64,000 nucleotides of DNA from Flavobacteriales bacterium UBA4466 (GCA_905182895.1 CAJJDD010000002.1:46620-110619); one strand, 5' to 3'; positions 1-64,000 are shown, counted from the first letter of the stretch. Notes: generated by a model not told the origin, from the sequence alone. Program-made: numbers and translations.

Positions 1-306
1 AACGCTTCTAATTATGATATGACTGCTTTAACTGATGACGGATCATGCGTATACTTGGGATGTACTGATCCTTTGTTCTTAGAGTATAATCCTTACGCTT
101 TGACTAATGATGGTTCTTGTTCTGTAGTAGTTGTGTTAGGATGTATCTACGATTCAGCAGATAATTATGATGCATCAGCCAATATAGATGATAACTCATG
201 TGTGTTCTCTGGGAATTCTTGTCCTGGTGATTTCACAGGTGATGGTTTTATAAACGTAAGTGATTTAGGAGGGTTCCTTGGAGCTTTCGGTACTTCGTGT
301 GAGTAA
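1..306 (+). CDS. C-terminal end of a secreted Cys-rich repeat protein; the 5' end lies outside the window
   Basis: Frame 1 is open from base 1 (NASNYDMTALTDDGSC...) with no start codon needed. It contains repeats of the type C-x-D-x-x-A-x-NYD...DDGSC and ends in CPGDFTGDGFINVSDLGGFLGAFGT, a dockerin/EF-hand-like motif. A hairpin terminator follows. Confidence 0.6.
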   Translation, partial: NASNYDMTALTDDGSCVYLGCTDPLFLEYNPYALTNDGSCSVVVVLGCIYDSADNYDASANIDDNSCVFSGNSCPGDFTGDGFINVSDLGGFLGAFGTSCE

Positions 307-326
307 GACATAAGATAAGTAACTGT

Positions 327-366
327 AAAACCCCTTATTCCTTTATTGGAGTAAGGGGTTTTTTTT
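327..366 (+). terminator. Rho-independent terminator
   Basis: Stem CCCCTTA(331-337)/TAAGGGG(352-358) extends with one mismatch and is followed by a T8 run, directly after the stop at 306. Confidence 0.6.
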
Positions 367-422
367 GTTACAAGTTTGAATTGTAAAGGGGAAATAAAAT
401 CAATTCATTAGCTTTGGGGTTC

Positions 423-2733
423 ATGATGAACTCAACTTTTATGCGTGGTATTTTTCTTTCCGCTTTAGTCCTTTTATTTATTCCTCAGAAACTACTCACC
501 CAGTGCTGTGATTATACATTGATACTGCAAGACGAGTATGGAGATGGTTGGAACGGAGCTGAGCTTGAAGTTTTTATAAATGCTGAGTCATTCGGAGTGT
601 TTTCTGCAGAAGAGTTTGGAAATAATGTGCTACTTCCCACTTGTAATGGAGAAGAAATCACTCTAAATTATTCAACAGGAGAGTACGAAAATGAAAACAG
701 TTATTTACTCCTAGCATCGGGAGGCGTGCTAGTTCATTCAGATGGGCCAGAACCCAGTGAAGGAGAATCTGGACCTTTCATAGCTGATTGTGATTTAGAA
801 CCAGCACCTGGTGCTAGCCCATGTTCTGCGATGCAATTAACCCCTGATGAATGCATAAGCGCTGATAATTCAGCTGTAGTAGGTTCAGGATATACTCCTA
901 ACTGCTCCGAGTACGATGGCGGAGATATCTGGTATTCTATTGGTGTTCCAGAATCAGGTAATCTTGTTTTTCAAACTGCAGATAATGGAGGTATGAATGA
1001 CACAGGAATTCAGCTTTGGTTTGGAGAAGAATGTTTTTCTTTAGAGGATGGCCCGTGTGATGATGATGGAGGTACAGGGTATTTTTCCTTTATAACTGTG
1101 AGTAATTTAACTCCAGGAGAGATTATTTATGTTCAATTATGGGGCTACGGTGGAGCAGAAGGAAGTTTCGAGTTATGTGCTTTGGATCCAGGAATAGTAG
1201 AACTAGAACAGTCTCTTCTTCCTATATTTTTAATAGAAACCAATGGAGAAGAAATCCTAGATGAACCCAAAATAGATGCTTCTCTCAAGGTGATTTATAA
1301 CGGGCTAGGTGAAGTTAATTTCTTAGCAGATGAACCCGAAAATTATAATGGCCAGATAGGAATAGAAATAAGAGGAGCCACGTCAGCAGGTTACCCGCAG
1401 ACACCATATTCTTTTGAAACTAGAGATGCCTTAGGAGAAAATAACAATGTGAGCCTCGTAGATATGCCAGAAGAGAATGACTGGGTATTGCTGAGTAATT
1501 ACAATGACAAAGTGCTAATGAGAAACCTTCTGGCGAGTCATTTGTTTGAGAGAATGGGAGAGTACGCGCCTAGGGTTCGCTTGTGTGAAGTTCAGATAAA
1601 CGGTGATTACCAGGGGATTTATGCGTTCGGTGAAAAAATAAAAGTGGACGATGGCAGGTTAGATATTGCTACGCTAAATGTAACAGAGAACGATGGAGAT
1701 GATGTGACGGGTGGGTATATCCTAGAACTTAACTATCACAATAGCCAGAATAGCTGGGAGCTAAATAACACCTCTTTGAATCATCCAGATTTTGATGTTC
1801 ACTTGGTTTACAAATACCCCAAGCCAGAAGTGATCACAGAACCACAAAAAGAATACATAGCGTCTTATGTAGATTCTATGGAAACAGCTCTTTATGGTGA
1901 TGATTTCATGAGTATGGATGAAGGGTATAGGAACTATATGGATATAAACTTTTGAAAGAATTGAATAAAGCTGACAATATTGGGCCAATAATGATGGGTT
2001 TAAAAAAAGCAGGAATTTCCACAAAGATAAATCAAGTAATGGGGGCTTATTCAAGGCAGGTCCTTCCTGGGATTTTGATTGGGCCTGGAAAGACATGTAT
2101 ACCTGTGAGATTTTTGAAAATCAAGACGGGTCTGGTTGGGCACATTTGATTAACGACTGCCCTACAGATAATTATAGTCCTGATTGGTATGTGCGTTTGC
2201 AGCAGGACAGCACTTATGTAAATCAGCAGAGGTGCCAATGGGATGAATACAGAGAGGAGTTCTTAAACCAAGAGTATATAAATAACTATGTAGACAGCAT
2301 AGCCTTATTAGTGAGTGCTGCTCAAGAACGTCACTTCCAGAAATGGCCTATTCTAGGACTTGCCACTGCTGCTCCAGAGGTAGAGCCGCTTCCAGATAGT
2401 TATGCTGGAGAAGTAGCGTTTTTTAAGGAATGGATTAATCTAAGAATAAACTGGTTAGATGAGAATTTGCCAGGCTCGTGTGTCGATCCTATAGTAGGAG
2501 TAGAAGAAATAGCTATGGATGTGAGACTTTACCCTAACCCAAACAATGGGCAGTTTACATTAGAATGTATTAAGTGTAGAGGGAGAGAATTAGTATTACT
2601 TGATGTATTTGGTCAAGAGGTCTGGGCCAAAAAAAATCATCATCCAAGAACAGAGATTCAGTTAGATTTACCTAAAGGGGTATATGTTCTTAAGGCAGGT
2701 GGAGAGTACTTGCAAAAAATGGTAATCGAATAA
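423..2733 (+). pseudogene. CotH kinase family protein with T9SS C-terminal sorting domain, frame-disrupted
   Basis: Signal peptide (MMNSTFMRGIFLSALVLLF). N-terminal YGDGWNG module. CotH-like core (IEIRGATSAGYPQTPYSFETRD ... LCEVQINGDYQGIYAFGEKIKVD). The reading continues through two frame changes near 1950 and 1975 (..YMDINF / LLKELNKADN / QYWANNDGFKKSRNFHKDKSSNGGLFKAGPSWDFDWAWK) into ORF 2095..2733, which ends in a T9SS CTD (VRLYPNPNNGQFTLE...GVYVLKAG). Confidence 0.75.
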
Positions 2734-2855
2734 TTCAATTGAGACTGCGAAGAGTTCATTATTTAGACTCAATTTTTTATAGATTTCACTACCAGTATTC
2801 GTTATAATTTCGAGTTATAATTTTGAGTATATTTCTAAAAAAAAAACAAGTCCAG

Positions 2856-3830: not shown

Positions 3831-4838
3831 TTGATTAAGTATATTTTAGGAATAGGGGTGGCTTTTATGTTCGCTAATTTTTTAATTGTCCACGACTCCA
3901 AAGAGGATGAAAGTTTGATCATAATTCCTGTAGGGTTTCCTGAAATAGATTTTCCAGAAGATAACTTGCCAAGTGTAGAAAGAATAAATTTAGGTAAAAG
4001 ACTTTTTTTTGACACTCTAATGAGTAAGGATTTTAGTGTTAGCTGTGCCAGTTGTCATAAACCGCATTTGGCTTTTTCTGATAATTTACGGTTTAGTATA
4101 GGGTCAGATTTATCAGAAGGAAAAAGCAACGCCCCTTCTCTAGCGAATGTTGCTTACAGTCCCTATTTAAATAGAGATGGTGGGGTTCCAACCTTAGAAA
4201 TGCAGGTGTTGGTACCTATTCAGGAACATCTAGAATTGGATATGAATATTTTAGAAATAGCTGAGAGGATGAATGAAGATCCGAGCTACATAGATATGAG
4301 CATGATAGCCTATAACCGAGTTCCTGATCCGTATGTAATCACGAGAGCTCTGGCTAACTTTGAAAGGACGCTTATTAGTGGACAAAGTAGATTTGATCAG
4401 TATTATTACCAAGGTGATAAGAAGCAGTTAACTAAAGAAGAGAGAAAAGGAATGGATCTCTTTTTTAGTGATAAAGCGCAGTGTAGCTCGTGTCATGGTG
4501 GGTTTACCTTCACGAATTATGCATTCGAGAATAATGGACTCTATGAGCAGTACATAGACTCAGGAAGAATAAGATTGACAGCAGAAGAGTCCGACAGAGC
4601 CCTATTTAAAGTCCCTACGTTAAGAAATTTAGAATTCACCTCTCCTTATATGCATGATGGAAGCATGGAAACGATAGAGGAGGTTGTAGAGCATTACAGT
4701 AACAGTATTGCAGCGCATAAAAACCGCTCTATAAAATTAAAGCCTTTTCATTTTTCTAAAAAGGAAAAAGAACATTTGGTAGCCTTTTTAAAGAGCCTAA
4801 GCGATGAGAAATTTATAGAAAAGCAGTCCGTAAGATGA
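3831..4838 (+). CDS. Di-haem cytochrome c peroxidase family protein (CCP/MauG/MbnH-like)
   Basis: Two CxxCH haem motifs (CASCH, CSSCH). Conserved FKVPTLRNLEFTSPYMHDG block. N-terminal hydrophobic signal. The stop overlaps the next start (ATGA at 4835). Confidence 0.85.
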   Translation: MIKYILGIGVAFMFANFLIVHDSKEDESLIIIPVGFPEIDFPEDNLPSVERINLGKRLFFDTLMSKDFSVSCASCHKPHLAFSDNLRFSIGSDLSEGKSNAPSLANVAYSPYLNRDGGVPTLEMQVLVPIQEHLELDMNILEIAERMNEDPSYIDMSMIAYNRVPDPYVITRALANFERTLISGQSRFDQYYYQGDKKQLTKEERKGMDLFFSDKAQCSSCHGGFTFTNYAFENNGLYEQYIDSGRIRLTAEESDRALFKVPTLRNLEFTSPYMHDGSMETIEEVVEHYSNSIAAHKNRSIKLKPFHFSKKEKEHLVAFLKSLSDEKFIEKQSVR

Positions 4839-5893
4839 AAAGTATATTTCAGTTTATAATAGTATTGGCCATCGTTTTATCCTCATGTAAAAAGGATGAT
4901 GAATTAGCCTGTGAATCAGAGCCTGTGACCTTGGATGAAACAGCTTATGAGCTAGATTTAGGTAGTTTCCCACCACCTATGACACCTGAAGGATTTCAGC
5001 TTACTACCGCTAAAGTAGCGCTAGGCAGAATGTTATTCTATGAAGAGAAACTATCTTCATTAAACAATCAATCCTGTGCTTCTTGCCATAGCCAAGCTAC
5101 CGGATTTTCCGATATCAACCAGTTTAGTGAGGGTTCAGAAGGTAATGTTGGCGACAGACAGGCTATGGCTGTTATAAATTTAGCCTGGAATAATAATGGT
5201 TTTTTCTGGGATGGAAGATCACCCTCATTAGCTCATCAGTCCTTGCAGCCGATAATAAGTCCAATAGAAATGGCCGAGTCACATGCAAATGTGATTACAA
5301 AGTTGAATGAAATTCAGGGCTATAAAGATCAATTTATTAGAGCTTATGGAAATGAGGAAATAACTCCTCTAAAAATGGGGCAGGCCATGGAGCAGTTTAT
5401 GATGACCAAACTCAAAATTTGACGCTTATTTACTGGGAACTAATAACTTAACGGTACAGGAAATCAACGGATTTAATATTTTCATGGACGAATCAAAAGG
5501 AGATTGTTTTCATTGTCACGGTAGTGAAAATAATCCCTTATGGACTGATAATAAATTTCATAACAACGGATTAGATTCTGCTGTAACAGATCATGGTCTT
5601 GGAGGCATAACAGGTGACCCTTCAGATCATGGGAAATTCAAGTCGCCATCGTTGAGAAACTTAATCTTTACAGCACCCTATATGCATGACGGGCGATTTT
5701 CAACCATAGACGAGGTTATTAACCACTACAGCGAAGGCCTTCAAAACTCACCAACTATAGATCCTTTAATGAAAAAAGTAAGCCAGGGAGGTGTGCAACT
5801 AAACCCACAGGAAAAAGCAACTTAGTAAACTTCCTAAAGACTCTTACGGATGAGTCCTTTATCACTAACCCTGATTTTTCGAGTCCTTTTTAG
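4835..5893 (+). pseudogene. Second di-haem cytochrome c peroxidase family lipoprotein, frame-disrupted
   Basis: Lipoprotein signal (LAIVLSSC). CASCH in piece 4835..5422 and CFHCH plus FKSPSLRNLIFTAPYMHDG in piece 5484..5825. The typical C-terminal LVNFLKTLTDESF is read in a third frame ending at TAG 5891-5893. At least three frame changes. Confidence 0.8.
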
Positions 5894-9941: not shown

Positions 9942-12900
9942 ATGAAATTCATACTTGGCATAATGATGCTTTTTTTACCGCTAATTTTCACAGCGCAGAT
10001 TAGTCTAAACGAATTATCTGCCAAGGGAGGTGTTGTAAATATGGGGGGGGATGAAGACTGGTTAGAGATTATAAATACCGGGGCTGAGTCTCTCTTTTTA
10101 GCAGACTATTATTTGTCTGATAATGCAGATGATCTTCAGAAATGGAATATGCCGGCATATACACTTACTCCAGGTGAGATACTGCTTGTGTTAGCCTCAG
10201 GAAATAATGTGGGCAGTGGATCAGGTGTTTGGCAGTCTTTCGTGCTGGCAGAAAACACATGGAAATATTTACCAGGAACTACAGAGCCTTCTTTAGATTG
10301 GAATTCATTAGATTTTAATGATTCTGCTTGGGAAGAAGCTTCGGGAGGGTTTGGCTATGCCGATGAAGATGATGGAACAGAGCTAGAAGGATTTCCTTCG
10401 GTATATATTAGAAGGACTTTTCAGGTGTCAGACGCTTCGGCAATCTCTGAAATGATTTTACATGCAGATTATGATGATGCTTTTGTGGCCTATTTGAATG
10501 GAACAGAAATCGCTCGTTCATCAAACATAGAAGGATTTCCACCAGCGTACGATTCGTATGCCACTATAGACCACGAAGCCAATCTTTATGAAGGTGGTAT
10601 TCCCGAAATGTATACGCTGAGCCCAGCAGAGATTAATGTTTTAGTTCAAAATGGTGATAATGTATTGGCTATTCAAACACACAATGTTTCAGCTGAAAGT
10701 TCTGATATGAGTAGTAATTTCTTTTTGAGTGGTTTACTCGATTCTTTTAATCCATCATATTTACCTCTTCCAACTTGGTATCAACCTTTTGTGAATTCTT
10801 CATTTTTCGAGACTAATTTCAAGTTAAGCCCAGGTGAAACTGTGTTTGCTACCAGTGTATTTGGAGATATTACAGATTCAGTTACGATACCAGAAGAGTT
10901 ATCAGGTGGGCTTTCTTATGGAAGAGAGCCAGATGGAACAGGTCCATGGTGCTATTTTGATGTATCCTCTCCAGCAGTTGCTAATGCAAATAGTTGGTGT
11001 TATGCCGGAATAGCAGAAGAACCTACTGTAAGTTTACCTTCAGGATGGTACACCTCAGACCAATTGTTAACTGTAGACGCACAATTTAATGCAGTACGAT
11101 TCACTTCAAATGGAGATGCTCCTACTTTAGATTCGCCCTTATTTATTGAAGCAGAGGTAGATGAAAATATTTCTTATTCATTCAGGTCATTCTCTCAGCA
11201 GAATCTCCTGCCTAGTGTGGTTGTAGATAGAACATACATTTTGGACGAAGATAATTATGAGCTTCCTGTATTCTCTATCCACACCGATGAGGCCCACCTT
11301 TGGGATTGGGAAGATGGTATCTATGTATATGGTCCTAATGCAGACTTAGATAATTATATTAATGGCAGTAATTTCTGGGAGCCATGGTCACGTTTTTCTA
11401 GAGTGGAATTTTTTAATGGAAATAAGGAGCTAAAAGCAGAAGAATATTTAGACCTAGAAATTCACGGAGGATGGAGCAGGGGAGAGAGTCAAAAGTCTTT
11501 TCGGTTTGATTTTAAGTCTGCTTACACTGGAAATTTGGAAGAGTCTCTGTTTTCTCAAAAACCGTTTATAGAGGACGTAAATAACATTAACCTCAGAGCA
11601 GGGGGTCAGCACCTCTGGACAGATAAAATCCAAGATGGTCTTTTTTCAAGAGTAGTAAATGATCTAAATCTAGACAATATGGCTTACGAGCCATGCTTGC
11701 TCTATTTAAATGGAGAATTTTGGGGTGTTTATGCTATGCGTGAAAAAATGGATGAGCACTATGCAGAATCCAACCATGACGTGAATTCTAGTGAAGTAGA
11801 CCTATTAAATTCGTGGGGAGTTTTAGAGGGAACAGACGCTCACTTTATAGAGACCTTTGAAGTCTTAATGCAGGCCAGTTCTAATCTTTCTGAGTTTTAT
11901 CAAGTGGCTGATAGCAGGTTAGATTTAGAGAATTATATGGATTACTTTATAGCAGAAACTTATCTGCAAAATAAAGATTGGATGGGCATAGAATGGGGGT
12001 TAAACAACGTGAAATTATGGAGGCCTCAGACAGAAGGAGGAAAATGGAGGTACATGATGTATGACCTAGATTTTGGGTTTTCTTTTCTATGGGGTTCTGT
12101 TGAGGATAATTTTATAGCTAAAGCAAAAAACCCACCTTATCCGTCTATGCACTCGGAGTTGTTTAATAAACTGTTGACCAATAACCAGTTTAAATGTGAG
12201 TTCGCTCAGCGCTATGCAGATGTAATTAATACAGTATTTCAGCCATCTTATTTCACCGAAAAAAAGGATGAGATAGTAAGCCAGATGGAAGGTGCTATGA
12301 CCATTCATGCAGATAGATGGGCTGAAAACGTACCTGTGGAACAATGGTATTTAGATGTCAATCAAATAGCAAACTATAATACATCTCGAATTCCTACGGC
12401 TAGAGCGCATGTAAATGATGAATTGAACTTAGGTGGTCAAACAGTAATGACTTTTAACGTACTTCCAGAAGGAGCAGGAACCATTCAAGTAAACACGATA
12501 GAGCCAGAATCATTTCCATGGACTGGCGTATATTTCCATGGCTGCCCAGTTCAGATTATAGCCACGCCCAATGAAGGTTTTGTTTTTGATTCTTGGAATG
12601 CCAATGGCATAATTACAGAAGGCTCAGGAGAATCTGTCTTACTAGAAAATTTATTCCAAAACGATACATTCACAGCCAACTTCTTCACTGAGGGAGTAGA
12701 CGTAACAGAAATAGAAACTGTTGTAAATTTAGAGGTGTTTCCTAATCCTACGAATGGATTTACCACCTTAAGTTATGAGTCATCTATAGTAGAAGATGTT
12801 CAAATAGCGGTCTATGACATGGCAGGAAAGCAAGTTTTTTATGAGCAAGTGATGAAAGGGAATAGAGAATTAATATTTCCTATAGACTTAACCTTCTTGA

Positions 12901-12970
12901 AAAGGGAATGTATTTAGTAGAATTGAAGTCTGACTTTAACATAATTTCCACAAGAGTAGCGTTGCAATAG
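9942..12970 (+). CDS. Lamin-tail-domain plus CotH kinase family protein with T9SS C-terminal domain; last ~25 codons are in another frame
   Basis: Signal peptide. LTD-like N-terminus (LNELSAKGG...DWLEIINTGAESLFLADYYLSD). CotH core (LEIHGGWSRGESQKSFRFDF...CLLYLNGEFWGVYAMREKMDEHY). CTD starts at LEVFPNPTNGFTTLSY. The track ORF stops at 12917 (..LTFLKRECI), but a shift near 12895 reads LEKGMYLVELKSDFNIISTRVALQ-stop (TAG 12968-12970), the expected CTD ending. Confidence 0.8.
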
Positions 12971-27469: not shown

Positions 27470-27627
27470 AACAGTCTATTCAGGCATAAAAAAACCTCGT
27501 GAGCTTTCGAGAGTTTTTTATTTTATATGCTTATTGAACTATTCTTTCATGATACTTCTTCCTTTAATAACAGCCGTTTTAAGACCATACATTTTTTCTT
27601 TCAACAGTTCAACTTTTTGGAAAGCAG

Positions 27628-28270: not shown

Positions 28271-28282
28271 GATATTTCTTTA

Positions 28283-38944: not shown

Positions 38945-39054
38945 GTTGATAAGTGGAAATGGATTTATGTACGAAACCCTTTTTAAATGCGTTTAATAAA
39001 AAGGTAGAGTAGTAGACTTCGGATCGGGTACTCGGAAAGGTCTGATTCGAAGAT

Positions 39055-42547: not shown

Positions 42548-42549
42548 AG

Positions 42550-42648
42550 ATGAAAGTTATTATTTATTCGAAGGAAGGTTGTGAGTATTGTGACCATGCA
42601 AAGACACTATGTGAGTCGGAGAACTTCGACCATGACTTGCGAAATTAA
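42550..42648 (+). pseudogene. Glutaredoxin/NrdH-like N-terminal fragment
   Basis: MKVIIYSKEGCEYCDHAKTLCESENFDHDLRN-stop has the classic beta1-CxxC-alpha1 start of a glutaredoxin. It is cut off after 32 codons. Confidence 0.45.
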
Positions 42649-44614: not shown

Positions 44615-44615
44615 G

Positions 44616-47934: not shown

Positions 47935-49134
47935 ATGAGTACTAAAACCTATGTTTCTGATTTACTTAATCGTCTTCCTGAGTCGGCTACTTTGGCCATG
48001 GCAAGAATGAGTAGAGAATTAAAAGAATCTGGAAAAGATGTTAATATCTTTGAGTTTAGGTGAGCCTGATTTTAATGCTCCAGACTTCGTGAAAGAGGCG
48101 TGCAAGCAGGCTGTAGATGATAATTACTCTCATTATCCACCAGTAAATGGGTATGGAGAATTAAGAGAGGCTATTTGCCATAAGTTTAAAAGAGACAATG
48201 ACTTAGTGTATACACCAGACCAAATAGTGGTCAGTACAGGTGCTAAGCAGACTATAAGTAATATCGTTTATGCATTAGTGAATCCAGGAGATGAGGTGTT
48301 GTTGCCAGCTCCGTTTTGGGTGAGTTATGCTGCTATGGTTCAATTGGCAGGAGGAGTTCCAGTAATTATTCCTACCCAAATAGAAAATGATTTTAAAATT
48401 ACACCATCACAATTAGAAGCGGCGATTACGCCATAAAACAAAGCAATGATTATCTACATCAGCCTTGTAATCCATCAGGTTCTGTTTACAGTAAAGATGA
48501 GTTAACAGCTTTAGCAGAAGTGATCAAGTCTAAGCCAGACTTTTTTGTGGTATCTGATGAGATATATGAACATATTAATTATACAGGAGAGCATGCTAGT
48601 TTAGGAACTATTCCTGGCATTTTTGACCAAGTAATTACTGTGAACGGTGTGAGTAAAGCTTTCGCTATGACCGGATATAGGATAGGCTATTTAGGAGCGC
48701 CAACATGGATAGCTAAGGCTTGTTCTAAAATGCAAGGCCAGGTTACCTCTGCTCCATCTGGTGTGAGTCAAATGGCTGCTAAAGCTGCAGTTTTGGCAGA
48801 TCCGTCTTCGGTTTCTTACATGAAAGATGCTTTTCTTAAAAGAAGAGATATGATGCTAGAGAAATTAGGTGAAATACCGGGGTTAAAGTTAAACGTACCT
48901 GAGGGAGCTTTTTATATCTTTCCTAACTGTATGGAATTACTCGGAACTGTAACTGATGATGGGAAGGAGATTAACACGTCTTCTGATCTATGCATGTATC
49001 TTTTACAAGCAGAGAATGTAGCTCTAGTAGCAGGAGATGCTTTCGGTGCGGCTGAATGTTTTAGACTTTCATACGCAGCTAGTGAAGAGATGCTAGTAGA
49101 GGCTAGCAGAAGGTCCGTCTCTAGCATTTGGTAA
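47935..49134 (+). pseudogene. Class I/II pyridoxal-phosphate aminotransferase (aspartate/aromatic type), disrupted by two frameshifts and one in-frame stop
   Basis: ATG 47935 (MSTKTYVSDLLNRLPESATLAMARMSRELKESGKDV) shifts near 48045 into ORF 48038..48436. An in-frame TAA lies at 48434-48436 (ITP-stop-NKAMII). A shift near 48450 follows (QPCNPSGSVYSKDEL). The PLP lysine block SKAFAMTGYRIGY is in ORF 48520..49134. Confidence 0.85.
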
Positions 49135-52788: not shown

Positions 52789-53586
52789 CTACTCCAAGCC
52801 TAGTTTCAACATCTTTATTAAGTGGTGTGAATCTTTTAGCTCTAGAAATGGATACTCAATCCTGCTCAGAAACAGGCCATTCGGAAGGGCTGGCTGCTTG
52901 TCTTTCAGTTGTTTTTTTCGCTTCAAAATCTCCTCAAATTCTTCCAAGGTCATTTTACCGCTTCCCACCTGTAATAAGAAGAAAACACAGTAGCGAACCA
53001 TACCTCTGAGGAATCCGATTACTGGTGATGGTAAACCGCAGTCGTCCCTTATCTTCATTGATGAATAATTCAGAATTCGTTACTCTGCATAACGTGTTTT
53101 TATATACATCGGGCTGTTTGCAAAGCGGTCTGAAATCTTTCGTTTCTAAGATAAGCCCCGCAGCCTTTTTCATGAGGTCGAAGTCCAATGTTAAATCCTC
53201 ATAGAACGAGCTGTAGCGAATAAGAATAGGATCCTTCTTTAAATGAATAAAATAGTCATAGGTACGAGATACAGCGCTATGTCTAGCATGTTGCTTATTG
53301 TCTACTTCAAATATTTCAAAAACAGCAATCGTATCAGGTAAATTCTTGTTTAGGCGGAACATTAAATCAAATGAAGGGTCTTCATCCAATTCTATTTGAA
53401 CCACATACTGACTAGAGTGAACACCTGCATCAGTTCTTCCACAGCCGTTTGCAGTCACTTCTTTCTTAAATACTTTAGAGAGAACATCCTCTATAACCTT
53501 CCTGTACTGTGTTTCGAGGTTTAGTTTGTCTCTGCCAACCTCTGTATGGGGTGCCGTCAAATCCTAGGTGTATGAAATAGCGCATC
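52789..53586 (-). pseudogene. truA: tRNA pseudouridine(38-40) synthase TruA, two frame breaks
   Basis: ATG at 53586 gives MRYFIHLGFDGTPYRGWQRQ. ORF 52955..53560 carries the catalytic GCGRTDAGVHS. ORF 52789..53058 carries FLRGMVRYCV...PNGLFLSRIEY. Confidence 0.85.
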
Positions 53587-53815
53587 TGTAAATTATAACA
53601 AGAGTAGGCTTAATTTTTATGAATTAGCATTAAATGGCTAAACTAATTTCAAATTATCTCTCTTTTTTCAAGGTCTTTATATACCTATCAGTTTGTGCAG
53701 TTAAACTCGGTCCTTAAGCTCATTTCAGCCAATAATATTTGGTTAAAATGAGGTTAGAAATTATGATTACCATCCAGTACAAATTTTATGAGGCACTGTT
53801 TCTATTACTATCAGC

Positions 53816-55975
53816 TTACGGTCCCGTGATAGGGTTGGCGCTCACATTAAAAGTAGGTAAGAAATTCTGGTACAATTCAGAATTAGTGATGACATCAACT
53901 GAAACAATGTTGACTAAATCATTTGGGATCTCTGCTACAGCCTCAATTGTGAATACTTTGGTGTCGTCCCAGTTTTCTGAATCCCAGTATAACATTGTTG
54001 GTGTTATTGAAACGCTGGATGCAGAGCTTATTAAGTTCACAGTCAATCCAATATCTGTTCCCTGTAGGCTTATAATGGGATCTGTTAATGTGACTGAAAC
54101 TTCATAGGTCTCTCCAATCTGAGTGAAGTTTATATTCTTAATGTCAAAGTTGATTATTTCTGTTACATCAGAATCATATTCACAAGACCCATCATCTGTA
54201 TTAGCTAAAGCATTATAGTTTGTAGCTGTAGAATCTATACAGCCTAATAAAGTTGATGTTGAACATGGAGTACCGAAAGCCCCAAGGAAGCCACCTAAGT
54301 CACTTACGTTTACATTACCGTCACCAGAAAAATCTCCAGGACACACAGAGGCTACACCAGCATCAAAAGCCTCTTGGTTGTCTGACGCTATGTCTGGGCA
54401 CTCAAATACACAAGTCCCATCATCTATCGTGACTGCCGAATCGTAGTTCGTTGCTGAGGGATAAGTACAGCCACTATTACAGGAAATAAATTCACATGAC
54501 CCATCATCACACGTTGCAACAGAATCGTAGTTACATGCCGTTGAATCTATGCACCCATTAATTAGTTGACATGAATCATCGTCATACAGCGCATCTGGGT
54601 CGAAGTTACATGCCATTGGATCCATACAACCACAAGCACTATTGTTGGCGCCGCCTTCTACATAAAAGGTTCCAATAAGAACGTCCCCGGCATTCGAATC
54701 ATCCCAGAAAAGGTCTAACAAAAAGCCTTCTGAAGATTCTACAAAAACACCTCCATAAACATTCTCCCATATCCAGCCGTCCCCATAGCTATCTGAGAGT
54801 TCGAGAGTATAAGTACCCTCAGACAATGAAATAGTTTGTCCTATTAAGTAATATCCTTCTAATTCTGGATCGCTTCCATTAACATCAAACTGGAGCTGGT
54901 CAGGAAACTCTCCATCTGCGACGATAAGACTACCATCTTCAACGTACATCAAATTAGCTATTAGATTCCCTGCTTCATCATAAATATTTGCAGATGCCTC
55001 GGCAACATAATAGTCAAACTCGTAATTGAATGACACCAACGATGGTCCAGCACATGAGCAATAATAACATGATCCATCATCGCATCCTGCGGTCGGATCA
55101 AAATTACATGCTATAGAATCAGCACAACCTGGGTAGGTGCATAATCCATCATCACAGATTGCAGCTGAATCATAGTTACACGCTGTTGAATCAGTACATC
55201 CATCAGGCAATACACATGATCCATCATCGCAACCTGCGGCTGGGTCATAGTTACACGCTGTTAAATCAGTGCATCCATCAGGCAATACACATGATCCATC
55301 ATCGCAACCTGCGGCTGGGTCATAGTTACACGCTGTTAAATCAGTGCATCCTGGATAGGTGCATAACCCATCATCACAAGTTGCTGCTGAATCATAGTTA
55401 CACGCTGTTAAATCAGTGCATCCATCAGGCAATACACATGATCCATCATCGCAACCTGCGAATAAATTGTAGTTGCATGCTGCAACATTGTTACACCCAG
55501 GATAGGTGCAAAAGCCATTATCTATAGTTGCTTGTGCATTGAAGTTACACGCAGTCATATCAGTACATCCTAAATTAGGGTCACAGTTTTCAGTTGTGTA
55601 AGGATTAAAATTTGGATCTAAACTTTGCCACATGCCACACTGGTTGATTACACCCAAATTTTCAACCACCCCTAGATTAATCACGTCCCCGTTATTATCT
55701 ACAGATCCAGTTGGCTCATTTACAACCGCACCCGAATCATGGATCAAAAAATACCCCTCATTATCAATGAAACCATCATTATAAATAAATCCAAAATTTT
55801 CAATACTCGCATAATTCTCTATGACTCCTGATAAGTTGATGATACTACCATCAGGTTGAATCTCAATTATCGCAGTTCCATAAGCTGATATATTCCCAAT
55901 GTTTTCAATGGTTCCGGTGACAACTATAGATGCTTCATTAACAAGTGTTGCATTCGTTGTGCAAGGTGTAATCAA
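53816..55975 (-). CDS. Block 3 of the Cys-rich modular secreted-protein locus
   Basis: It has no signal peptide or ATG of its own; the track start is a TTG right after a stop cluster. Order of elements: xGxIxN beta-helix-like repeats, QCGMW, seven 23-25-aa C-T-D-x-T-A-C-N-Y-D...C-D-D-G-S-C units, a SYGDGW module, four more Cys units, a dockerin-like CPGDFSGDGNVNVSDLGGFLGAFGT, and a Cys-free tail. There is no T9SS CTD. Confidence 0.65.
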   Translation of the reverse strand: MITPCTTNATLVNEASIVVTGTIENIGNISAYGTAIIEIQPDGSIINLSGVIENYASIENFGFIYNDGFIDNEGYFLIHDSGAVVNEPTGSVDNNGDVINLGVVENLGVINQCGMWQSLDPNFNPYTTENCDPNLGCTDMTACNFNAQATIDNGFCTYPGCNNVAACNYNLFAGCDDGSCVLPDGCTDLTACNYDSAATCDDGLCTYPGCTDLTACNYDPAAGCDDGSCVLPDGCTDLTACNYDPAAGCDDGSCVLPDGCTDSTACNYDSAAICDDGLCTYPGCADSIACNFDPTAGCDDGSCYYCSCAGPSLVSFNYEFDYYVAEASANIYDEAGNLIANLMYVEDGSLIVADGEFPDQLQFDVNGSDPELEGYYLIGQTISLSEGTYTLELSDSYGDGWIWENVYGGVFVESSEGFLLDLFWDDSNAGDVLIGTFYVEGGANNSACGCMDPMACNFDPDALYDDDSCQLINGCIDSTACNYDSVATCDDGSCEFISCNSGCTYPSATNYDSAVTIDDGTCVFECPDIASDNQEAFDAGVASVCPGDFSGDGNVNVSDLGGFLGAFGTPCSTSTLLGCIDSTATNYNALANTDDGSCEYDSDVTEIINFDIKNINFTQIGETYEVSVTLTDPIISLQGTDIGLTVNLISSASSVSITPTMLYWDSENWDDTKVFTIEAVAEIPNDLVNIVSVDVITNSELYQNFLPTFNVSANPITGP
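55058..55570. repeat. Array of seven 69-75-bp coding repeats (CxDxxACNYDxxAxCDDGxC units)
   Basis: Hand-counted from aa 136-305 of the block 3 translation. Confidence 0.9.
55201..55350. repeat. Two base-for-base identical 75-bp tandem units
   Basis: 55201-55275 equals 55276-55350 (CATCAGGCAATACACATGATCC...AATCAGTGCATC), read directly. Confidence 0.95.
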
Positions 55976-55996
55976 TGTCTAAACCATCCCTTATAA

Positions 55997-56839
55997 TCAC
56001 ATTTGATCCAATTGAACAGTAGCATCGTTCCCCGGACCGGGAAATCCATTATCCCAGTTACCTTCAGTGTGCCAGTCTGAACTTATGACACCGGTAAAAA
56101 TGGTTCCGCCAGTTCCTCCTGAACAACTTGGGTTTGATGCACAATCTGGGTCGTCGCAGTCTATCAGTCCATCACCTTCATTATCTATACCGTCTGCACA
56201 ATCGCATTCGTAAAGGGTACAATCAACGCATTCAGAGGCAGATACACAATCTGAATCGTTACAGTCTATCTGTCCATCACCATCATTGTCTATACCGTCT
56301 GCACAATCGCATTCGTAAGCAATGCAATCGACACATTCAGGGGCAGATGCACAATCTGGATCGTCACAGTCTATTAGTCCATCACCTTCATTATCTATAC
56401 CGTCTGCACAATCACATTCGTAAAGGGTACAATCAATTTCATTCTGGCAAGCGGCAGTTTCCAAAGGATTTCCATTTGGATCTGAACCATTCCAAAAACC
56501 GCATTGGTTGATGAGCCCACTATTTTCAACAGCCCCATCATTAAAAACCTCCCCACTGTTATCTATAAATCCTGTTGGCTCATTTACAACCGCACCCGAA
56601 TCATGGATCAAAAAATACCCCTCATTATCAATGAAACCATCATTATAAATAAATCCATCATTATAAATACTCGCATAATTAGAAATGACTCCTGATAAGT
56701 TGATGATACTACCACTTGGTTGAATCTCAATTAGCGCAGTTCCATAAGCTGATATATTCCCAATGTTTTCAATGGTTCCGGTGACAACTATAGATGCTTC
56801 ATTAACAAGTGTTGCTTTCGTTGTGCAAGGTGTAATCAA
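55997..56839 (-). CDS. Block 2 of the Cys-rich modular locus
   Basis: TTG-initiated ORF in the same frame as blocks 1 and 3. Order of elements: xGxIxN repeats, QCGFW, three 35-aa CxxYECDCADGIDN(D/E)GDGxIDCxDxxC units, then SGGTGGTIFTGVISSDWHTEGNWDNGFPGPGNDATV and stop. Confidence 0.6.
   Translation of the reverse strand: MITPCTTKATLVNEASIVVTGTIENIGNISAYGTALIEIQPSGSIINLSGVISNYASIYNDGFIYNDGFIDNEGYFLIHDSGAVVNEPTGFIDNSGEVFNDGAVENSGLINQCGFWNGSDPNGNPLETAACQNEIDCTLYECDCADGIDNEGDGLIDCDDPDCASAPECVDCIAYECDCADGIDNDGDGQIDCNDSDCVSASECVDCTLYECDCADGIDNEGDGLIDCDDPDCASNPSCSGGTGGTIFTGVISSDWHTEGNWDNGFPGPGNDATVQLDQM
56117..56431. repeat. Three 105-bp coding repeats (35-aa Asp/Cys-rich calcium-binding-like units); a second set lies at 56981..57295
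   Basis: The period of 105 was measured on CGTCTGCACA landmarks (56191, 56296, 56401). Confidence 0.9.
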
Positions 56840-56860
56840 TGTCTAAACCATCCCTTATAA

Positions 56861-58573
56861 TCACATTTGATCCAATTGAACAGTAGCATCGTTCCCCGGA
56901 CCGGGAAATCCATTATCCCAGTTACCTTCAGTGTGCCAGTCTGAACTTATGACACCGGTAAAAATGGTTCCGCCAGTTCCTCCTGAACAACTTGGGTTTG
57001 ATGCACAATCTGGGTCGTCGCAGTCTATCAGTCCATCACCCTCATTATCTATACCGTCTGCACAATCGCATTCGTAAAGGGTACAATCAACGCATTCAGA
57101 GGCAGATACACAATCTGAATCGTTACAGTCTATCTGTCCATCACCATCATTGTCTATACCGTCTGCACAATCGCATTCGTAAGCAATGCAATCGACACAT
57201 TCAGGGGCAGATGCACAATTTGAATCGTCACAGTCTATCTGTCCATCACCATCATTGTCTATACCGTCTGCACAATCACATTCGTAAAGAATACAATCCT
57301 CGCCATCTTCACCTGTGCAAGATCCCCAAGATCCCCAAGAACCATTTGCGCAGGTTCTCGTTTGCGTTCCGCTATTATTGTTTCCGCAGGCTATTGTTTC
57401 TTGAGAGCCATTTGTGCAAACATCTGGGTCATTACAACTTCCCCAAGCTCCGCTTGTGCAGGTTTGAGTTCCGTTGTTGTTTAAACCGCAAGCTTGTGTT
57501 GCGCCTTCTGTACAATCAGAATTTTCATCAATTTCACTATCACAGTCATCATCAATATCGTTGTTTGGTATTTCGATCGCTCCCGGATATATAGTATCGT
57601 CACTGTCGTTGCAATCTAAATCTGAGTAGTATCCATCTCCCAATCATGTTCCATCCTGATTCTAAGTCTCTACTTAAACACCATTTATCTATGGTATTCT
57701 CAACACAATCACCAATTGAATATATGCAAGACCCATCGTCTACTTCTTGCAGTCGAATCGTAGTTCGTAGCAGCTGAATAGGTACAACCAGCGCAAGAAG
57801 TAAACTCACAAGAACTGTCGTCGATTGTTGCAGTGGCATCGTAGTTACATGCCGTAGTATCTGTACAACCTGGCCCAGCACATGGTGTGTAGAGGTTAAA
57901 TATTGGATCGCCTCCACCCCAGAAGCCGCATTGGTTGATGGTCCCGCTCGTTCTCGATGGTCCCGTCGTTATTGATGCTCCCGCCGTGTTGTCGATGGTC
58001 CCGTGTTGTTGATTTCCCGAGTGTTGACATCCCGCCGTTATTGATGCTCCCGCCGTTGTTGTTGTTGATATTCCCGAAGTTGTTGAAGATGCCCCCGTAG
58101 TTGACGATGGTCCCGAAGTTGTTGAAGATGCCCCCGTTGTTGAAGATGCCCCCGTTGTTGTCGATGGTCCCGTCGTTGTCGATGGTCCCGTCGTTATAGA
58201 TGGTCCCGCCGTCGTTGAAGATGGTCCCGCTCGTTGATGATGGTCCCGCCGTCGTTGTAGATGGTCCCGTCAGTTGGTAGATGGCCCGCCGTTCTCGATG
58301 GTCCCGTAGTTGTTGATATTCCCGTAGTTGTAGATGGTCCCGCTGTGAGATTTCGATTGATGATTCCCGTCGTTGAAGATGTCCCATCCGTATGATAACA
58401 GTGGATCCAGAGGGAATAGTGGCGTCATTGCCCATGGCAGGAAGCCCATTGTCCCAGTTTCCAGCCTCAGCCCAATCGTAACTTATGACACCCGTAAAGG
58501 TGGTTTGAGAGAGGGCTTCTGTCGTAAATAAGATTGTAAAAATCAATAATATAAATGCAAATAATTTTTTCAT
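56861..58573 (-). pseudogene. Block 1 of the Cys-rich modular locus; the only block with a start and signal peptide, and heavily frame-scrambled
   Basis: ATG at 58573 (MKKLFAFILLIFTILFTTEALSQ), then TTFTGVISYDWAEAGNWDNGLPAMGNDATIPSGSTVII. GTIxNxG heptad repeats follow and need several frame changes. Next come QCGFWGGGDP, two CTDTTACNYD-type units, a MopE-like DGYYSDLDCNDSDDTIYPGAIEIPNNDIDDDCD, a WGSWGSC segment and three 35-aa units. Pieces in the ORF track: 57896..58594, 57600..57917 and 56861..57643. Confidence 0.6.
57931..58390. repeat. GC-rich ~21-nt repeats (GATGGTCCCGxCGTTGTTGAx on the plus strand; GTIxNxG on the minus strand)
   Basis: Read directly. More than 15 units contain GATGGTCCCG or GATGCCCCCG. 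Confidence 0.85.
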
Positions 58574-58642
58574 TACGGGATTGTTTGAGAGCAACTATTA
58601 AGTTACAATTTAAATAAGTCTAATCTATTAGATTTCATTCAA

Positions 58643-58781: not shown

Positions 58782-61700
58782 TTAATCAATCAATATCTCA
58801 TCTACAAAAATCCATGGAGTTTCTCCTGCGCTTATATGCCAGCTTGGCATAGGACCCCAATTAACTGCCTTTACTCTTACATAGCGCGCTAGAGTGAATA
58901 TTTCTGCTCCTGCTAATCCATGTTCCACATCTTCTTCTAGTGGCTCTAAAGAGAATGTAATGCTGGAGTATGGCTCCCAGATTTCTTTGTCTGCAGAAGT
59001 TTCTATTACTACTGCGCTTGGTGGGAAAATCCAAGGCTTGGTATCTTTTAAGTAGCTGAGGTGAATAGATGATATGGCTGTTTTAGCTCCCAAATCCACT
59101 ATGGCGTTTAGGTCTTCTCCCCAGTACCCTTGGAAATCACCGCTTTTATAATCAGGCCTAGATCTTATTCCATCTATCAGCGCCATGTCTCCACCACCAG
59201 TGTATTGATTGTTATACTCAGAGAAAAGTTCTATGGCCCAGTCGGCTTTTCTTTTTATAACTATAGCTTTCACTATTCCGCTAGCAGAGGCCACTTGTTT
59301 TTGGCTCCTAGCTTCTATCGTCATGGATTCATTTATGTTAAATGGCTCGGTATATAATTCCCAATCAGTCGTATCTATTACTGCAGTAGTTCTATACTCT
59401 GTCCGTGCTCCTTTTTCAGAAGAGATGGTCACGGTAGTTTCATCTAGAAAACTTCTCTCAACAGTAATGGTGGGAGCCATGGTAATATCAAAACCATCTA
59501 TTTTAGAGGTAGGGCGGTTTGTTTGGTGCCGTTCCCCATGATTGTATTTGGGACTAGGGGACAGTTCAAATGACAAGATGCTCCGCCTTCCATAATCATA
59601 TCATGAGTGATGTATGAGTTTGGCCAGTCGGCTCCGTTATACCTCACGCTAGAGATATACCTTCTTTTCTCTTTAGGGGCTATTTCTTCTAGTTCCATCT
59701 CCAGCATAGAAGTAGAGATAGAAAACGTATTTCCGTTTTCTAGATGAATGGCAGCACTGTCTATAATAGGCGCGCTCAGGGCATATTCCCTGCTTCCTGG
59801 AGTTACAGAGTATATTCCCATAGCAGAGAGTACGTACCAGCTGCTCATCTGGCCGCAGTCTTCATTTCCACTGAGACCATCGGGAGTAGGAGAGTAAAGG
59901 TCCCTTAAAATTTCTTGAGTTCTGTACTGCGTTTTCCATGGCTGTCCAGAGTAATTATATAAGTAGGCCATGTGATGGCTAGGCTCATTTCCATGGGCGT
60001 ATTGGCCTATTAAACCGGTAATATCTGGCTGGTGTCTTCCTGCTAAATCCATAGGGGCTGTAAAGAGTTTATCTAGCAGTTCATTGAATCTTTTCTCGCC
60101 TCCTACATGGGTTATTAATCCATCCACATCTTGAGGAACGAAGAAGCTGTACTGGTAAGAATTGGCTTCTGTAAAATTGAAATTTACCTCAGAAGGATCG
60201 AACGGTGAAATCCAATCTCCATTTCTCTTGGCTCTGCAGTAACCAATTTCTCCATCTATAGTATTTCTATAATTCTGTGCACTTCTGTAATAGGTCTCTG
60301 CCACTTCCATGTTTCCTAGCGCTTCAGCAAAAATGGCTATGCACCAGTCGTTATAGGCATACTCTAAGTTCTTAGACACAGATTCTCCTTCATCTTCCAT
60401 AGAGATATATCCTTTCTCTCTAAAATGCTCTTTTCCGAATTCTACTGCTTCTGAGGTTTTTACCATGGCTTCCAACGCCTTCTGCGTATCGAAATCAGTA
60501 ATCCCCTTCATGTATGCGTCTACTATTACAGGCACAGCATTATACCCTATCATGCAGTGCGTGTAATTTCCTGCGAGCTCCCACATTGGGAGGTCTCCTC
60601 CCTGATCGTACATCTTCAGAAATGAGTGTATGAAATCTTTAGTTTTATCTCTCTGCGTAATGGTGTAAAGTGGGTGCGAAGCTCTAAATGTATCCCATAG
60701 AGAAAATACCGTGTACTGCTCATGGTCAGTGGCAGAGTGTGTTTCCATATCCACGCCTCTGTATCTTCCGTCTACATCTGTAAACGTATTCGGTACGGTG
60801 TAGGAGTGATAAAGTGCCGTGTAGAAATTTTGTAGTATGGCAGTGTCCTGCGTTGCAATATCTATTTTGCTCAATTCCTCTAACCACGCTTTTTTAGCCG
60901 CTGTTTTATATCTCCCAAAATCCCAATGCGGAGCTTCTGTTTTTAAGTTTTGCAACAAACTTTCAATATCTACTGGTGAAAGTTTTTCTTTTACATTAAA
61001 TCAGCTCCTTGATTAAAGACTAGCGGGAACACAGGAACCATCTCTTGGTAATTTCTGATTTCTCCATTATCCAGTTCCTCATAAACGATTTCGAAGGTCT
61101 GATCTGTATAGGTAAATGGTCTGGAAAACTCTGCTACGAAGTAAACATGCTGTTCTTCTGCCCATTCTTTAGAAACTCTCATTCCGGCTACAGTAGAATC
61201 ATTCAACGGATAAAATTGATATTCAATTAGCGGGTCTCTGTGTGCTAAATCTATAAATACAGTGAAACTATCAGCTTGATTAGTTAAGTGGTATTTGTGA
61301 ATTCCCACTCTGGTGGTAGTCGTTAATTCGGTTTCTATATTCTGGTCATCCAGAAAAACAGAGTAGTATCCAGGAGAGGCTTTTTCAGTTTCTTTTCGGA
61401 ATGCACTTCTGTACCTCTCCCCCCAGTTTTTTCCTTGATGCACAGCGCTATTTGTAGGCGACAGAAGAACATCACCATAATCAGAGATTCCAGTTCCCTG
61501 CAGGTGTGTGTGACTGAATCCGTATATCAAAGAATCTGAATCATGGTATCCACCGCAGCCATCCCATCCCGTAAGCCGCGTGTCTGGACTTAACTGCACC
61601 ATCCCGAATGGCATAGTAGCTCCTGGGTAAGTATGGCCGTGACCTCCAGTTCCTACGAATGGATTTACGAAGTCACATACGGTAGGTTCTTCTAGAAGTT

Positions 61701-61794
61701 CTGCTGCTGGTGTGGTTTTCTTATTCGCAGTGCACGAAGCCAGAGCTAAGAGCGCTAGTATAGTTAGTAATGAAAGTGAGGTGAGAAATTTCAT
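58782..61794 (-). pseudogene. GH92 family alpha-mannosidase with C-terminal carbohydrate-binding-type extension, two frame breaks
   Basis: Signal/lipoprotein (LLALASC). GH92 N-domain GTGGHGHTYPGATMPFGMVQLSPDT. Catalytic part with HGNEPSHHMAYLYNYSGQPWKTQ. The join at 60958-60991 reads ADLNVKEKLSPVDIESLLQNL if one A is added to TTAATG. The third piece, 58782..59576, is a beta-sandwich-like tail. Confidence 0.85.
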
Positions 61795-61891: not shown

Positions 61892-61910
61892 GACCTCAAA
61901 AGAAAATCCA

Positions 61911-62240
61911 ATGTCAGTATCTACTTCTACTATTATTTCTGCAGTCATACAGGCTTGTATGACTAATGATTTAACGGTTATTAAGCCGTTGATTTTTTCG
62001 GAGTCGGTAGAAATAAGTGGCCAGAATAAAGAGAAGTTTTTTCAGTTTTTCGAAAAGACAGTAAACGGAGCACATAGAAAAGCGAAGGGAGATTGGAATA
62101 TGAGTATAGAACCAGCAGAATGGTTAAAAGAGAAAAACGCAGTGGTCTATGATTTTTACGAGGGGAAAGGAAATCAACCGGTTATTTCGGTAGTTGTTGA
62201 AGAAAAAAGCGAGGTACTCTGGATGGAAGTTTTAAAGTAA
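61911..62240 (+). CDS. Hypothetical protein
   Basis: 109-aa ORF with a plausible promoter. No family recognised. Confidence 0.45.
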   Translation: MSVSTSTIISAVIQACMTNDLTVIKPLIFSESVEISGQNKEKFFQFFEKTVNGAHRKAKGDWNMSIEPAEWLKEKNAVVYDFYEGKGNQPVISVVVEEKSEVLWMEVLK

Positions 62241-62410
62241 TCTGTCGCTTATTTGTCTTTCATCTAGAGCTAATGCGCTGGTCGTTTCACGAAAATCTTT
62301 TCCTCATTAGCGTTTTGATATTTTATCTCATTACCTATGTATGTAGTTAAAAATGAACGATAATTATACTTGGATTTTAAACGGGTTACTAACCAAGATA
62401 ACTTTTAATT

Positions 62411-63822
62411 ATGAGGTCAATTTTACTACTTGTACTGTTTCTAGGAATGGCGAATTTCTCTTCAGCACAAGAATCTGCAGATGCTTTAAGCGCTTTCGTG
62501 AATAGTGAAGAACTGAAAAATGCCAGTGTAGGGTTTTCTCTACTAGATCCATCTGGAAAAGAAATCCAGTCCTATAATTCCGAAAAAAGTTTGGCGCCAG
62601 CTTCTACGGTAAAGCTTTTAACGAGCATCACAGCTTTAGAGGTTTTGGGGTATGACCATAAGTTCGTAACCACCTTAACTATACAAGGGACGGTTATGGA
62701 AGGAAAGCTAATAGGGAATGTTATTGTGAAAAGTGGAGGAGATCCTACGTTAGGAGCATCCGATTTTAAAAATCATTATGGAGACTTTGTGGGTGAATGG
62801 GTAGAAGCTATAAAAGCAGAAGGCATTACAGAAATAGACGGTAGGATTTTAATTGATGATGGCGCTTTAGAAGGAGACAGAAATGCGGGATCTACTGCAC
62901 TGAATGATGTAGGAAATTATTATGGTGCGGGAGCGCCAGGGTTTTCGTTTATGGATAATGAGTTTACCGTATTCTTCAATACTGCCGGAGTAGGAGCGGC
63001 TAGTGTAGGTAGTAAAGACAGAGCCAGCACTTCCTGATTCCGTAGAGTTAGTTAATGAGGTAAAAGTAGGAAGTAAAAGTGGAGACAATGTGATTATCTA
63101 TTCACTTGATGGAGGAAATCAAGTTTTCTTTAAGGGGGAGCTGCCGGCCAATAAAAAGGGTTTTCAAGTTAGAGGATCTATTCCCGATGTGACAGGTTTT
63201 GCTCAGGCTTATCTTCAAAGGGCTATAGAAAATTCTGGAATATCTATCACGGCAGTAGAAAAGAAGGGCCCGTTGTTTATGCATTCCAAAGAACTAGTGC
63301 GAACTAAATCTCCTGCGCTCATAGAGATACTTAAAGTACTCAATAAGAAAAGCGTAAACAGCTATGCAGATGTCCTGCTAAAACACATAGGGAAAGCCAG
63401 TGGAAGAGCAGCTACATTTGAAGGGGGCTCAGAAGCGGTGAAGGCTTATTGGAAGGAGAAAGGGTTGGATACCAGTGGGATTTATATAGAAGACGGAAGC
63501 GGTCTTTCTAGAAAAAACAATATCACGGCTAAATTTATGACCGGTTTATTGCAAAGTCAGGTAGAGGATGAGCAGGTAAATAAGATGATGAATGAAGCTT
63601 CTTTGTCCTTCTTCTGTGAAGTCCATGTGGGGCGAGGCTTTCAGAGGTCAGATTCAGGCTAAGAGCGGATATATAGGGAGAGTAATGGCATACGCTGGTT
63701 ATATCATTAGGGATGGAGAAAAATATCCTTTCTACCTTACCGTAAATAATTTTTCGGGTAGTGATTCTAAAATGAGAAAGTTAATGGGAGCGGCGTTAAG
63801 AGGAGTGAGACTTGAACTTTAG
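62411..63822 (+). pseudogene. dacB: D-alanyl-D-alanine carboxypeptidase/endopeptidase (PBP4, peptidase S13), two frame breaks
   Basis: Signal peptide, SxxK (PASTVKLLTS), SGLSRKNNITA and KSGYIGRVMAYAGYI (KTG-like). The three ORF pieces 62411..63037, 63090..63662 and 63592..63822 are in three different frames. Confidence 0.85.
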
Positions 63823-63823
63823 A

Positions 63824-64000
63824 TTAATTCATTGATATATTTAATTCAGAAACGGCTACATCTCCTGTTCTGATTCTCTGTACGATTTCTTCTATCATCC
63901 AGTCGTCTCCAGTAGGGTCATACTGGTGCTTTAAACTTGAGCTAAATATTCTGGCTACACTCTGCCATAAAAATGCGCTACCACCGCCTCTAATCTCTTT
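63824..64000 (-). CDS. 3' end of an unidentified gene whose start lies beyond the window
   Basis: The minus frame is open from base 64000: KEIRGGGSAFLWQSVARIFSSSLKHQYDPTGDDWMIEEIVQRIRTGDVAVSELNISMN-stop (TAA complement 63824-63826). Family not recognised. Confidence 0.4.
   Translation of the reverse strand, partial: KEIRGGGSAFLWQSVARIFSSSLKHQYDPTGDDWMIEEIVQRIRTGDVAVSELNISMN

Follow-up and report, generated by a model that had tools for sequence, protein, structure and literature searches.

Frame-broken genes in the Flavobacteriales bacterium UBA4466 assembly are most probably artefacts of an error-rich, partly chimeric draft

Mass pseudogenisation has occurred in recently host-restricted bacteria, such as Mycobacterium leprae and Sodalis. 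Technical errors can produce a broken gene set as well: indel errors in metagenome-assembled genomes (MAGs) from long reads fragment the open reading frames (ORFs) and lower the completeness (PMC8103633). Here, the frame-broken genes in a stretch of 64,000 nucleotides (nt) from the assembly of Flavobacteriales bacterium UBA4466 (GCA_905182895.1; C2:46620-110619) were analyzed; this whole stretch is referred to as the window. The original prediction, based on the DNA alone, listed 16 genes of the window that could only be read by changing frame. Of these, 15 do need more than one frame; the remaining one, a metallophosphoesterase, is instead interrupted by an in-frame TAA, and its end is degenerate. 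The breaks are real in the sequence. Their cause is most probably (about 93%) an assembly artefact in an error-rich, partly chimeric draft, and not gene loss; in the living organism, the broken genes are almost certainly intact. The original prediction had also favored consensus error or chimerism over genome decay. Four independent lines of evidence lead to the same choice: the lesions are private to this assembly; the essential genes rpoC, tuf, and topA are broken; the breakage follows gene length in a Poisson-like manner; and overlapping contigs of the assembly conflict with each other.

The UBA4466 assembly has 1.65 Mb in 27 contigs, with 38% GC and zero Ns. Every contig is longer than 23 kb, and the completeness of the bin was estimated at 62.9%. 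The relatives are marine Flavobacteriales MAGs, including UBA1958 (G006) and Cryomorphaceae ASP10-05a (G003). The genomes of the same genus are marine and span 2.3-5.6 Mb, which is unusually wide within one genus; G001 has 5.6 Mb in 4 contigs, and the others have 2.3-3.6 Mb. G003 itself is no clean reference: its MgsA is in two pieces (C7:76559-77832), and its rpoC runs across two contigs and several frames (C23 and C37 are involved).

All stop-to-stop ORFs of the window were translated, and then scanned against Pfam. Conspecific contigs, which are ENA metagenome contigs from other samples, were found by exact-protein look-up using intact proteins of the window. Their names point to metaSPAdes, MEGAHIT, and scaffolded short-read assemblies from TARA and other cruises. 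They are 97.7-99.2% identical to the window and jointly cover about 52 kb (window 1-7815, 9614-27601, 29446-40837, 42632-53617, and 58384-64000). Exact look-up of the truncated thiolase fragment and of the Zn-peptidase in other assemblies found neither on record. A protein identical to the 244-amino-acid (aa) UbiE (window 51984-52715) occurs in 193 indexed blocks of the public assembly collection, TARA samples included; the species is therefore evidently widespread in the ocean.

In ten genes, neighbouring ORFs in different frames hold complementary parts of one Pfam profile, which confirms the multi-frame reading. The affected features of the window are given below; compared loci are denoted by L numbers, and T9SS stands for type IX secretion system.

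414..2733, plus strand: CotH kinase-family gene 1 with a T9SS tail; scrambled patch (1944-1986, net -2) with 15 substitutions and 6 gaps, and second patch at 2014-2036; Pfam pieces at profile 1-170 and 183-322; whole at 770 aa in L139-L141.
4835..5825, plus strand: second di-haem cytochrome c peroxidase; out-of-frame block of foreign type at 5407-5820; 363 aa, intact in L139-L142.
9942..12970, plus strand: CotH gene 2 (LTD, CotH, and T9SS tail); -1 at 12898 truncates the sorting domain, with the Por_Secre_tail match limited to profile 1-42 of 75; 1010 aa, intact in L023.
22020..22811, plus strand: apparent metallophosphoesterase relic; in-frame TAA at 22608-22610 (GAA in relatives) and a degenerate C-terminus unmatched in relatives.
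23020..23905, plus strand: 3-hydroxybutyryl-CoA dehydrogenase (hbd); +1 at 23072 severs the NAD-binding N-terminus, and the first 15 profile positions are missing; 295 aa, intact in L023.
26293..27469, plus strand: thiolase; extra T at 27185 and in-frame scrambled patch at 27283-27296; Pfam N domain, then C domain 31-122 in another frame; 391 aa, intact in L023.
27542..28279, minus strand: coiled-coil lipoprotein; tblastn pieces in frames -2, -3, and -2; one 248-aa ORF in G003.
32630..33944, minus strand: DbpA-type DEAD-box helicase; +1 with substitutions at 33571-33576; Pfam DEAD pieces 2-105 and 107-161; 437 aa, intact in L143.
34026..36333, minus strand: TonB-dependent receptor; 22 substitutions and 11 gaps in a scrambled patch at 34675-34774 (net +1), and a second patch at 34800-34870 (net -12); Pfam barrel pieces 57-280 and 286-436; 772 aa, intact in L143.
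38106..38992, minus strand: DEDDh (RNase T-like) exonuclease; -1 at 38751; Pfam RNase_T pieces 1-56 and 55-164; 279 aa, intact in L024.
39109..41255, minus strand: PD40 beta-propeller/OmpA-like protein; -1 at 39328, +1 at 39611, -1 at 40153, and at the end -1 at 39053; four pieces in the window, but one uninterrupted ORF in L024 (576 aa or more).
41338..42632, minus strand: 2-oxoacid dehydrogenase E2; lipoyl-domain region 42311-42632 swapped for unrelated sequence; 448-450 aa with Biotin_lipoyl present in the conspecific contigs.
47945..49134 (start approximate), plus strand: class I/II aminotransferase; +1 at 48049 inside patch 48027-48052, a second patch at 48409-48462 (net +2), and +1 at 49105 ahead of a third patch (49110-49122); Pfam pieces 3-138 and 153-356; 404 aa, intact in ten contigs.
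52789..53560, minus strand: truA pseudouridine synthase; extra C at 53015 and at 53497 (example context GGAAT[C]CGATT); Pfam profile divided between frames; 264 aa, intact in ten contigs.
53617..53804, no strand: hydrolase gap; 187 nt where all conspecific contigs have about 1.29 kb with a 285-aa alpha/beta hydrolase.
53816..58594, minus strand: Cys-rich modular secreted-protein locus; -1/-2 pairs; about 2.3 kb longer than in L025.
58782..61794, minus strand: GH92 alpha-mannosidase that carries an F5/8 type C tail; five single bases gained within 59528-59582, and a 5-nt scrambled patch next to a -1 at 60994; Pfam N domain and catalytic domain in different frames; 1002 aa, intact in L025 and L026.
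62411..63819, plus strand: dacB (peptidase S13, PBP4); +1 at 63007 and +1 at 63607; Pfam S13 pieces 4-148 and 198-365; 469 aa, intact in L025 and L026.

Comparison with orthologues had been proposed as a check, and the conspecific short-read contigs provided it: every comparable broken gene of the window (13 were counted) is a single ORF in them. The ten contigs over 42.6-53.6 kb vary mutually at 269 sites in 11 kb, yet they side together against the indels and patches of the window. Each of the ten has 17-21 gap openings relative to the window, and the gap lists are nearly identical for the two that were printed. Since ten mutually variable contigs lack the gaps of the window, the lesions are private to the UBA4466 assembly. 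The list of 16 genes is also an undercount, with about 31 frame-disrupting events in the comparable 52 kb or so, intergenic ones among them; private intergenic indels are found at 26228, 27478, 62245, and 62387, for example. Three kinds of lesions were observed: isolated one-base indels in arbitrary context; scrambled patches (3-50 nt) in which substitutions and gaps are crowded together; and larger replaced blocks (5407-5820 and 42311-42632). Some of the patches are frame-preserving, such as 49283-49292 in PfkB.

The breakage extends to essential genes elsewhere in the assembly. The rpoC gene, an uninterrupted ORF in G006 and G001 (1435-1438 aa), has open frames of 550, 322, and 604 aa in UBA4466; it is disrupted by a scrambled patch (C5:14469-14512) and by the loss of one base at C5:15355. 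EF-Tu (tuf) is divided among three frames, with a stop beside the highly conserved RHY...DCPGH segment. The topA gene (topoisomerase I) is broken too. The count of frame disruptions per kb that the original prediction had called for was obtained by using ORFs from about 320 kb of G006, a sister species, as queries, which identified 118 orthologues in the assembly. Compared with G006, 43 of the 118 carry at least one lesion. The 114 orthologues covered to at least 90% comprise 135 kb of coding sequence, in which 61 frame changes were counted (0.45 per kb). The broken genes per length class number 8, 9, 12, 7, and 5, against 8.7, 12.1, 9.1, 8.5, and 5.4 expected from a Poisson model. Because the breakage tracks length and essential genes are hit, selection has not filtered the lesions, which rules out decay in a living lineage.

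The assembly also contains one region twice. C6:1-16132 and C20:40380-56527 (reverse) overlap by about 16 kb at 99.0% identity, and remain unmerged. The two copies differ by 107 substitutions and 44 short indels. Only 5 of these differences fall within the first 7 kb; beyond that, their density reaches 44 per kb. A long gene of this region is interrupted at about 14.3 and 15.0 kb in one copy; in the other copy, its break is at about 12.6 kb. The assembly thus contradicts itself in the manner seen in the window.

Chimerism was demonstrated directly for one block of 414 nt in the second peroxidase. After ...MEQFMMT, this gene continues in another frame as a sound but different C-terminal half of a di-haem peroxidase, which shares 80-93% aa identity with Flavobacteriaceae cytochrome c peroxidases (Flavivirga, Gaetbulibacter, Seonamhaeicola, and marine metagenome proteins). 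The block (window 5407-5820) has 87% nt identity, without gaps, to L144:2952-3365, a Flavobacteriaceae-type cytochrome c peroxidase gene. Against the conspecific gene, it gives only a short weak match (64 nt at 75%); its flanks are 100% and 97% identical to that gene. The block swaps 435 nt for about 403 nt at the homologous position, and the junctions are located in the conserved motifs NSK(F/Y)D and E(E/Q)(D/E)K. These alignments indicate that the block is foreign. The second replaced block, in the E2 gene (42311-42632, about 320 nt), retains only a 27-nt island (42445-42471) of the original. No second copy of the E2 block was found in the genome or the compared loci. There was no DNA or protein match to it in 50,697 phage records, and a protein search of 300 genomes of the order gave none either.

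Two of these features also admit a biological explanation. In place of the N-terminal 769 nt of the metallophosphoesterase (22032-22801), the conspecific L023 has 116 nt; this part is absent from G003 and G006, and the whole gene is kept in the more distant G001 and G005. This distribution suggests a true loss in the clade. It is conceivable that a minority of the differences are biological: the species cluster may be in the process of losing the metallophosphoesterase, as a true relic, and the peroxidase block may have arisen by natural gene conversion between families. The strain would then carry a recently acquired mosaic gene that is still out of frame. This combination is considered highly improbable.

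The distribution of the lesions along the window is uneven. The indels are strongly over-dispersed, with a variance-to-mean ratio of 7.9 per kb and 26 of 45 kb-bins free of indels; noisy stretches of 1-3 kb are interspersed with clean ones of 3-6 kb. Within 42.6-53.6 kb, there are 70 private substitutions, nearly all in about 10 patches, and the SSF and TrkH genes (3.4 kb) have 0. Private indels are about as frequent as isolated private substitutions. Natural divergence would not yield this mix of clustered substitutions and equally frequent indels. The dispersed private substitutions that relaxed selection would leave are not seen, the substitutions being confined to patches. Several other origins were considered. 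Small inversions or a base permutation (colour-space) gave no consistent mapping by eye on the displayed patches. The patches do not appear to be G003 or G006 alleles either; the thiolase patch is unlike both, and unlike the conspecific L023 too. Programmed frameshifting or a common slippery motif was rejected, as the frame changes are located in unrelated sequence contexts. An alternative genetic code was rejected as well: reassigning any one stop (TGA, TAG, or TAA) raises the number of ORFs of at least 100 aa from 2073 to 2857-3983, but that of ORFs of at least 600 aa only from 100 to 108-141.

Length miscalls in homopolymers by an indel-prone chemistry (454, Ion Torrent, or early nanopore) might also be the main cause of the lesions. 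A few events are indeed in runs, such as the A9 run at 39053 and a change of AAA to AA in a linker of the modular locus, and the resolved multi-kb arrays, the unmerged overlapping ends, and the all-large contigs of the assembly look like long-read data. The original prediction had likewise placed the breaks at short homopolymers, and the association with run length that it asked for was calculated for the window. It does not hold. Among 92 one-base gaps relative to the conspecific contigs, 88 are at a reference run length of 0-2 (75 at 0-1), and 4 are at runs of at least 3; such runs hold 20% of the window bases, but only 4% of the gaps. Two of the breaks that had been named also fall elsewhere: the hbd lesion is ATG[C]ATTT and not a change in TTT, and in the thiolase a T is inserted in TTG[T]CTTT, outside the A run. 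The 49 insertions are nearly balanced by 43 deletions, and all four bases are represented. Many lesions, furthermore, involve more than one base, as scrambled patches or as foreign blocks. Homopolymer miscalls as the main cause are thus very unlikely.

Genuine pseudogenisation in a decaying, host-restricted, or relaxed lineage would explain why the broken functions of the window are mostly dispensable. The metallophosphoesterase resembles a true relic, of which conspecific and sister genomes keep even less, and the bin is small at 1.65 Mb. However, the bin is merely 63% complete, and its relatives are free-living marine bacteria of 2.3-5.6 Mb. The breakage includes rpoC, EF-Tu, and topA, and tracks gene length, not function. 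Comparable genes are intact in the conspecific contigs at 98-99% identity, and private substitutions are nearly nil outside the patches. One locus that is present in two copies in the assembly even has its breaks at different places. Pseudogenisation as the cause is therefore hardly credible.

Chimeras and uneven coverage from multiple displacement amplification (MDA) of a single-amplified genome would agree with the incomplete genome (63%) and with the abrupt breakpoints at 5407, 42311, and 53617. However, MDA chimeras bring together pieces of a single genome, mostly in inverted order. The donor of the peroxidase block belongs to another family, and the block is inserted at the homologous position in the same orientation, so the single-cell-amplification chimerism offered in the original prediction does not fit. 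For the E2 block, there was neither a further copy in the genome nor a match among the 300 genomes of the order that were searched. Moreover, short-read single-cell assemblies do not yield about 0.5 indels per kb. Among the 40 longest of 576 matches in a self-comparison of the genome, no palindromic joins of MDA-type inverted repeats were found; these matches included the C6/C20 overlap, two inter-contig matches (88-90%, about 3.7-3.9 kb), and tandem arrays. The arrays are resolved over about 5 kb (153-nt units, C8:12651-17621) and about 4 kb (108-nt units, C4:5746-9835), with about 98% identity between copies, and resolved arrays of this size also argue against MDA, which seems a very remote explanation. 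Contigs that all exceed 23 kb, resolved arrays, and unmerged overlapping ends point to a long-read assembly. Finally, a wholly biological reading, in which the rpoC and tuf frameshifts are tolerated via a correction mechanism, is contradicted by the disagreeing C6 and C20 copies.

In the modular locus, the linkers that seem to contain three stops (55979-55999 and 56843-56863) are out-of-frame readings, which result from a -1 change followed by a -2 change about 75 nt later. The window is short of one A in TTCAAATT, and of two more bases about 75 nt downstream; this stretch reads ...IQIESNVIISDGLDIDYTLHNEG... in L025. Short-read contigs tend to end within the modular locus; some of its organization may thus be genuine, with only long reads able to resolve it. 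Strain variation or misassembly could account for the absence of the 285-aa hydrolase at 53617-53804. Another local difference is found at window 29446-29830, where a DUF6787 gene (+1 at 29505) is followed by a Zn-metallopeptidase; in L143:8438-9588, DUF6787 is followed by PPK2. This could be a rearrangement or strain variation, or a misassembly.

Several observations weigh against an artefact as the sole explanation. Both copies of the 864-nt tandem unit in the modular locus (55567-57295) share the identical -1/-2 lesion, which may stem from a systematic error or an artefactual duplication, or else be a true mutation that was duplicated. The absence of homopolymer bias and the equal insertions and deletions do not match the textbook error profile of nanopore or 454. 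Some patches keep the codon boundaries and encode plausible peptides, such as VVSID to VLKID in PfkB and ELGLDPSKV to ELNIDKNKV in the thiolase. These codon-respecting patches look like real foreign or variant alleles, and not like random noise; short patches in the thiolase and EF-Tu also read as plausible variant alleles. Genuine strain variation may also underlie a few of the differences, namely whether the metallophosphoesterase is present, the lack of the hydrolase, and the expansion of the modular locus. In addition, the artefact explanation is built on the comparison of assemblies and not on per-site read support, and the sequencing platform is inferred.

An assembly artefact would arise as follows. 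The window would derive from a metagenome bin of a common marine Flavobacteriales species. The bin was very likely built from noisy long reads, as judged from the form of the assembly, with incomplete or mis-recruited polishing. The noisy stretches would gain one-base indels, scrambled patches, and a few swapped blocks; the frame would then be shifted or stopped, and gene callers would see split genes. During consensus or polishing of the low-coverage bin, reads of other taxa might have been recruited at conserved or seed-sharing places. This last step is coherent but unproven.

The genome serves as a species representative, yet about one third of its genes are split and some segments are foreign. 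Its completeness estimate is probably depressed by the errors. Calls of pseudogenes, gene loss, three-stop linkers, truncated domains, or orphan ORFs in this window need to be checked against the conspecific short-read contigs first, and the same caution applies to the E2 breakpoint and the modular locus. The frameshifts themselves hold no new biology; their value is that of a quality flag for the genome.

Compared with the known systems, UBA4466 resembles two kinds of technical error, and differs from each in some respects. As with the indel errors of long-read MAGs (PMC8103633; the 'ideel' diagnostic for truncated ORFs), genes are split between frames, essential genes are affected, and the breakage is proportional to gene length. 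Low completeness is likewise combined with high contiguity and resolved repeats. In contrast to such errors, UBA4466 shows no homopolymer bias, a blocky alternation of clean and noisy stretches, and multi-base scrambled patches. The 414-nt block from another family, located at the homologous position in a native peroxidase gene, resembles the inter-genome chimerism of metagenome assemblies and bins, as do the variant-allele-like patches in the conserved EF-Tu, rpoC, and thiolase genes. However, chimeric contigs usually join kb-scale pieces, whereas the scale in UBA4466 is tens to hundreds of bases inside native genes. With the reductive evolution of M. leprae and Sodalis, UBA4466 shares the dense frameshifted genes, many of them dispensable. 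It differs in that essential genes are hit, the lesions are missing from conspecifics, private substitutions are not spread along the sequence, and the relatives are free-living.

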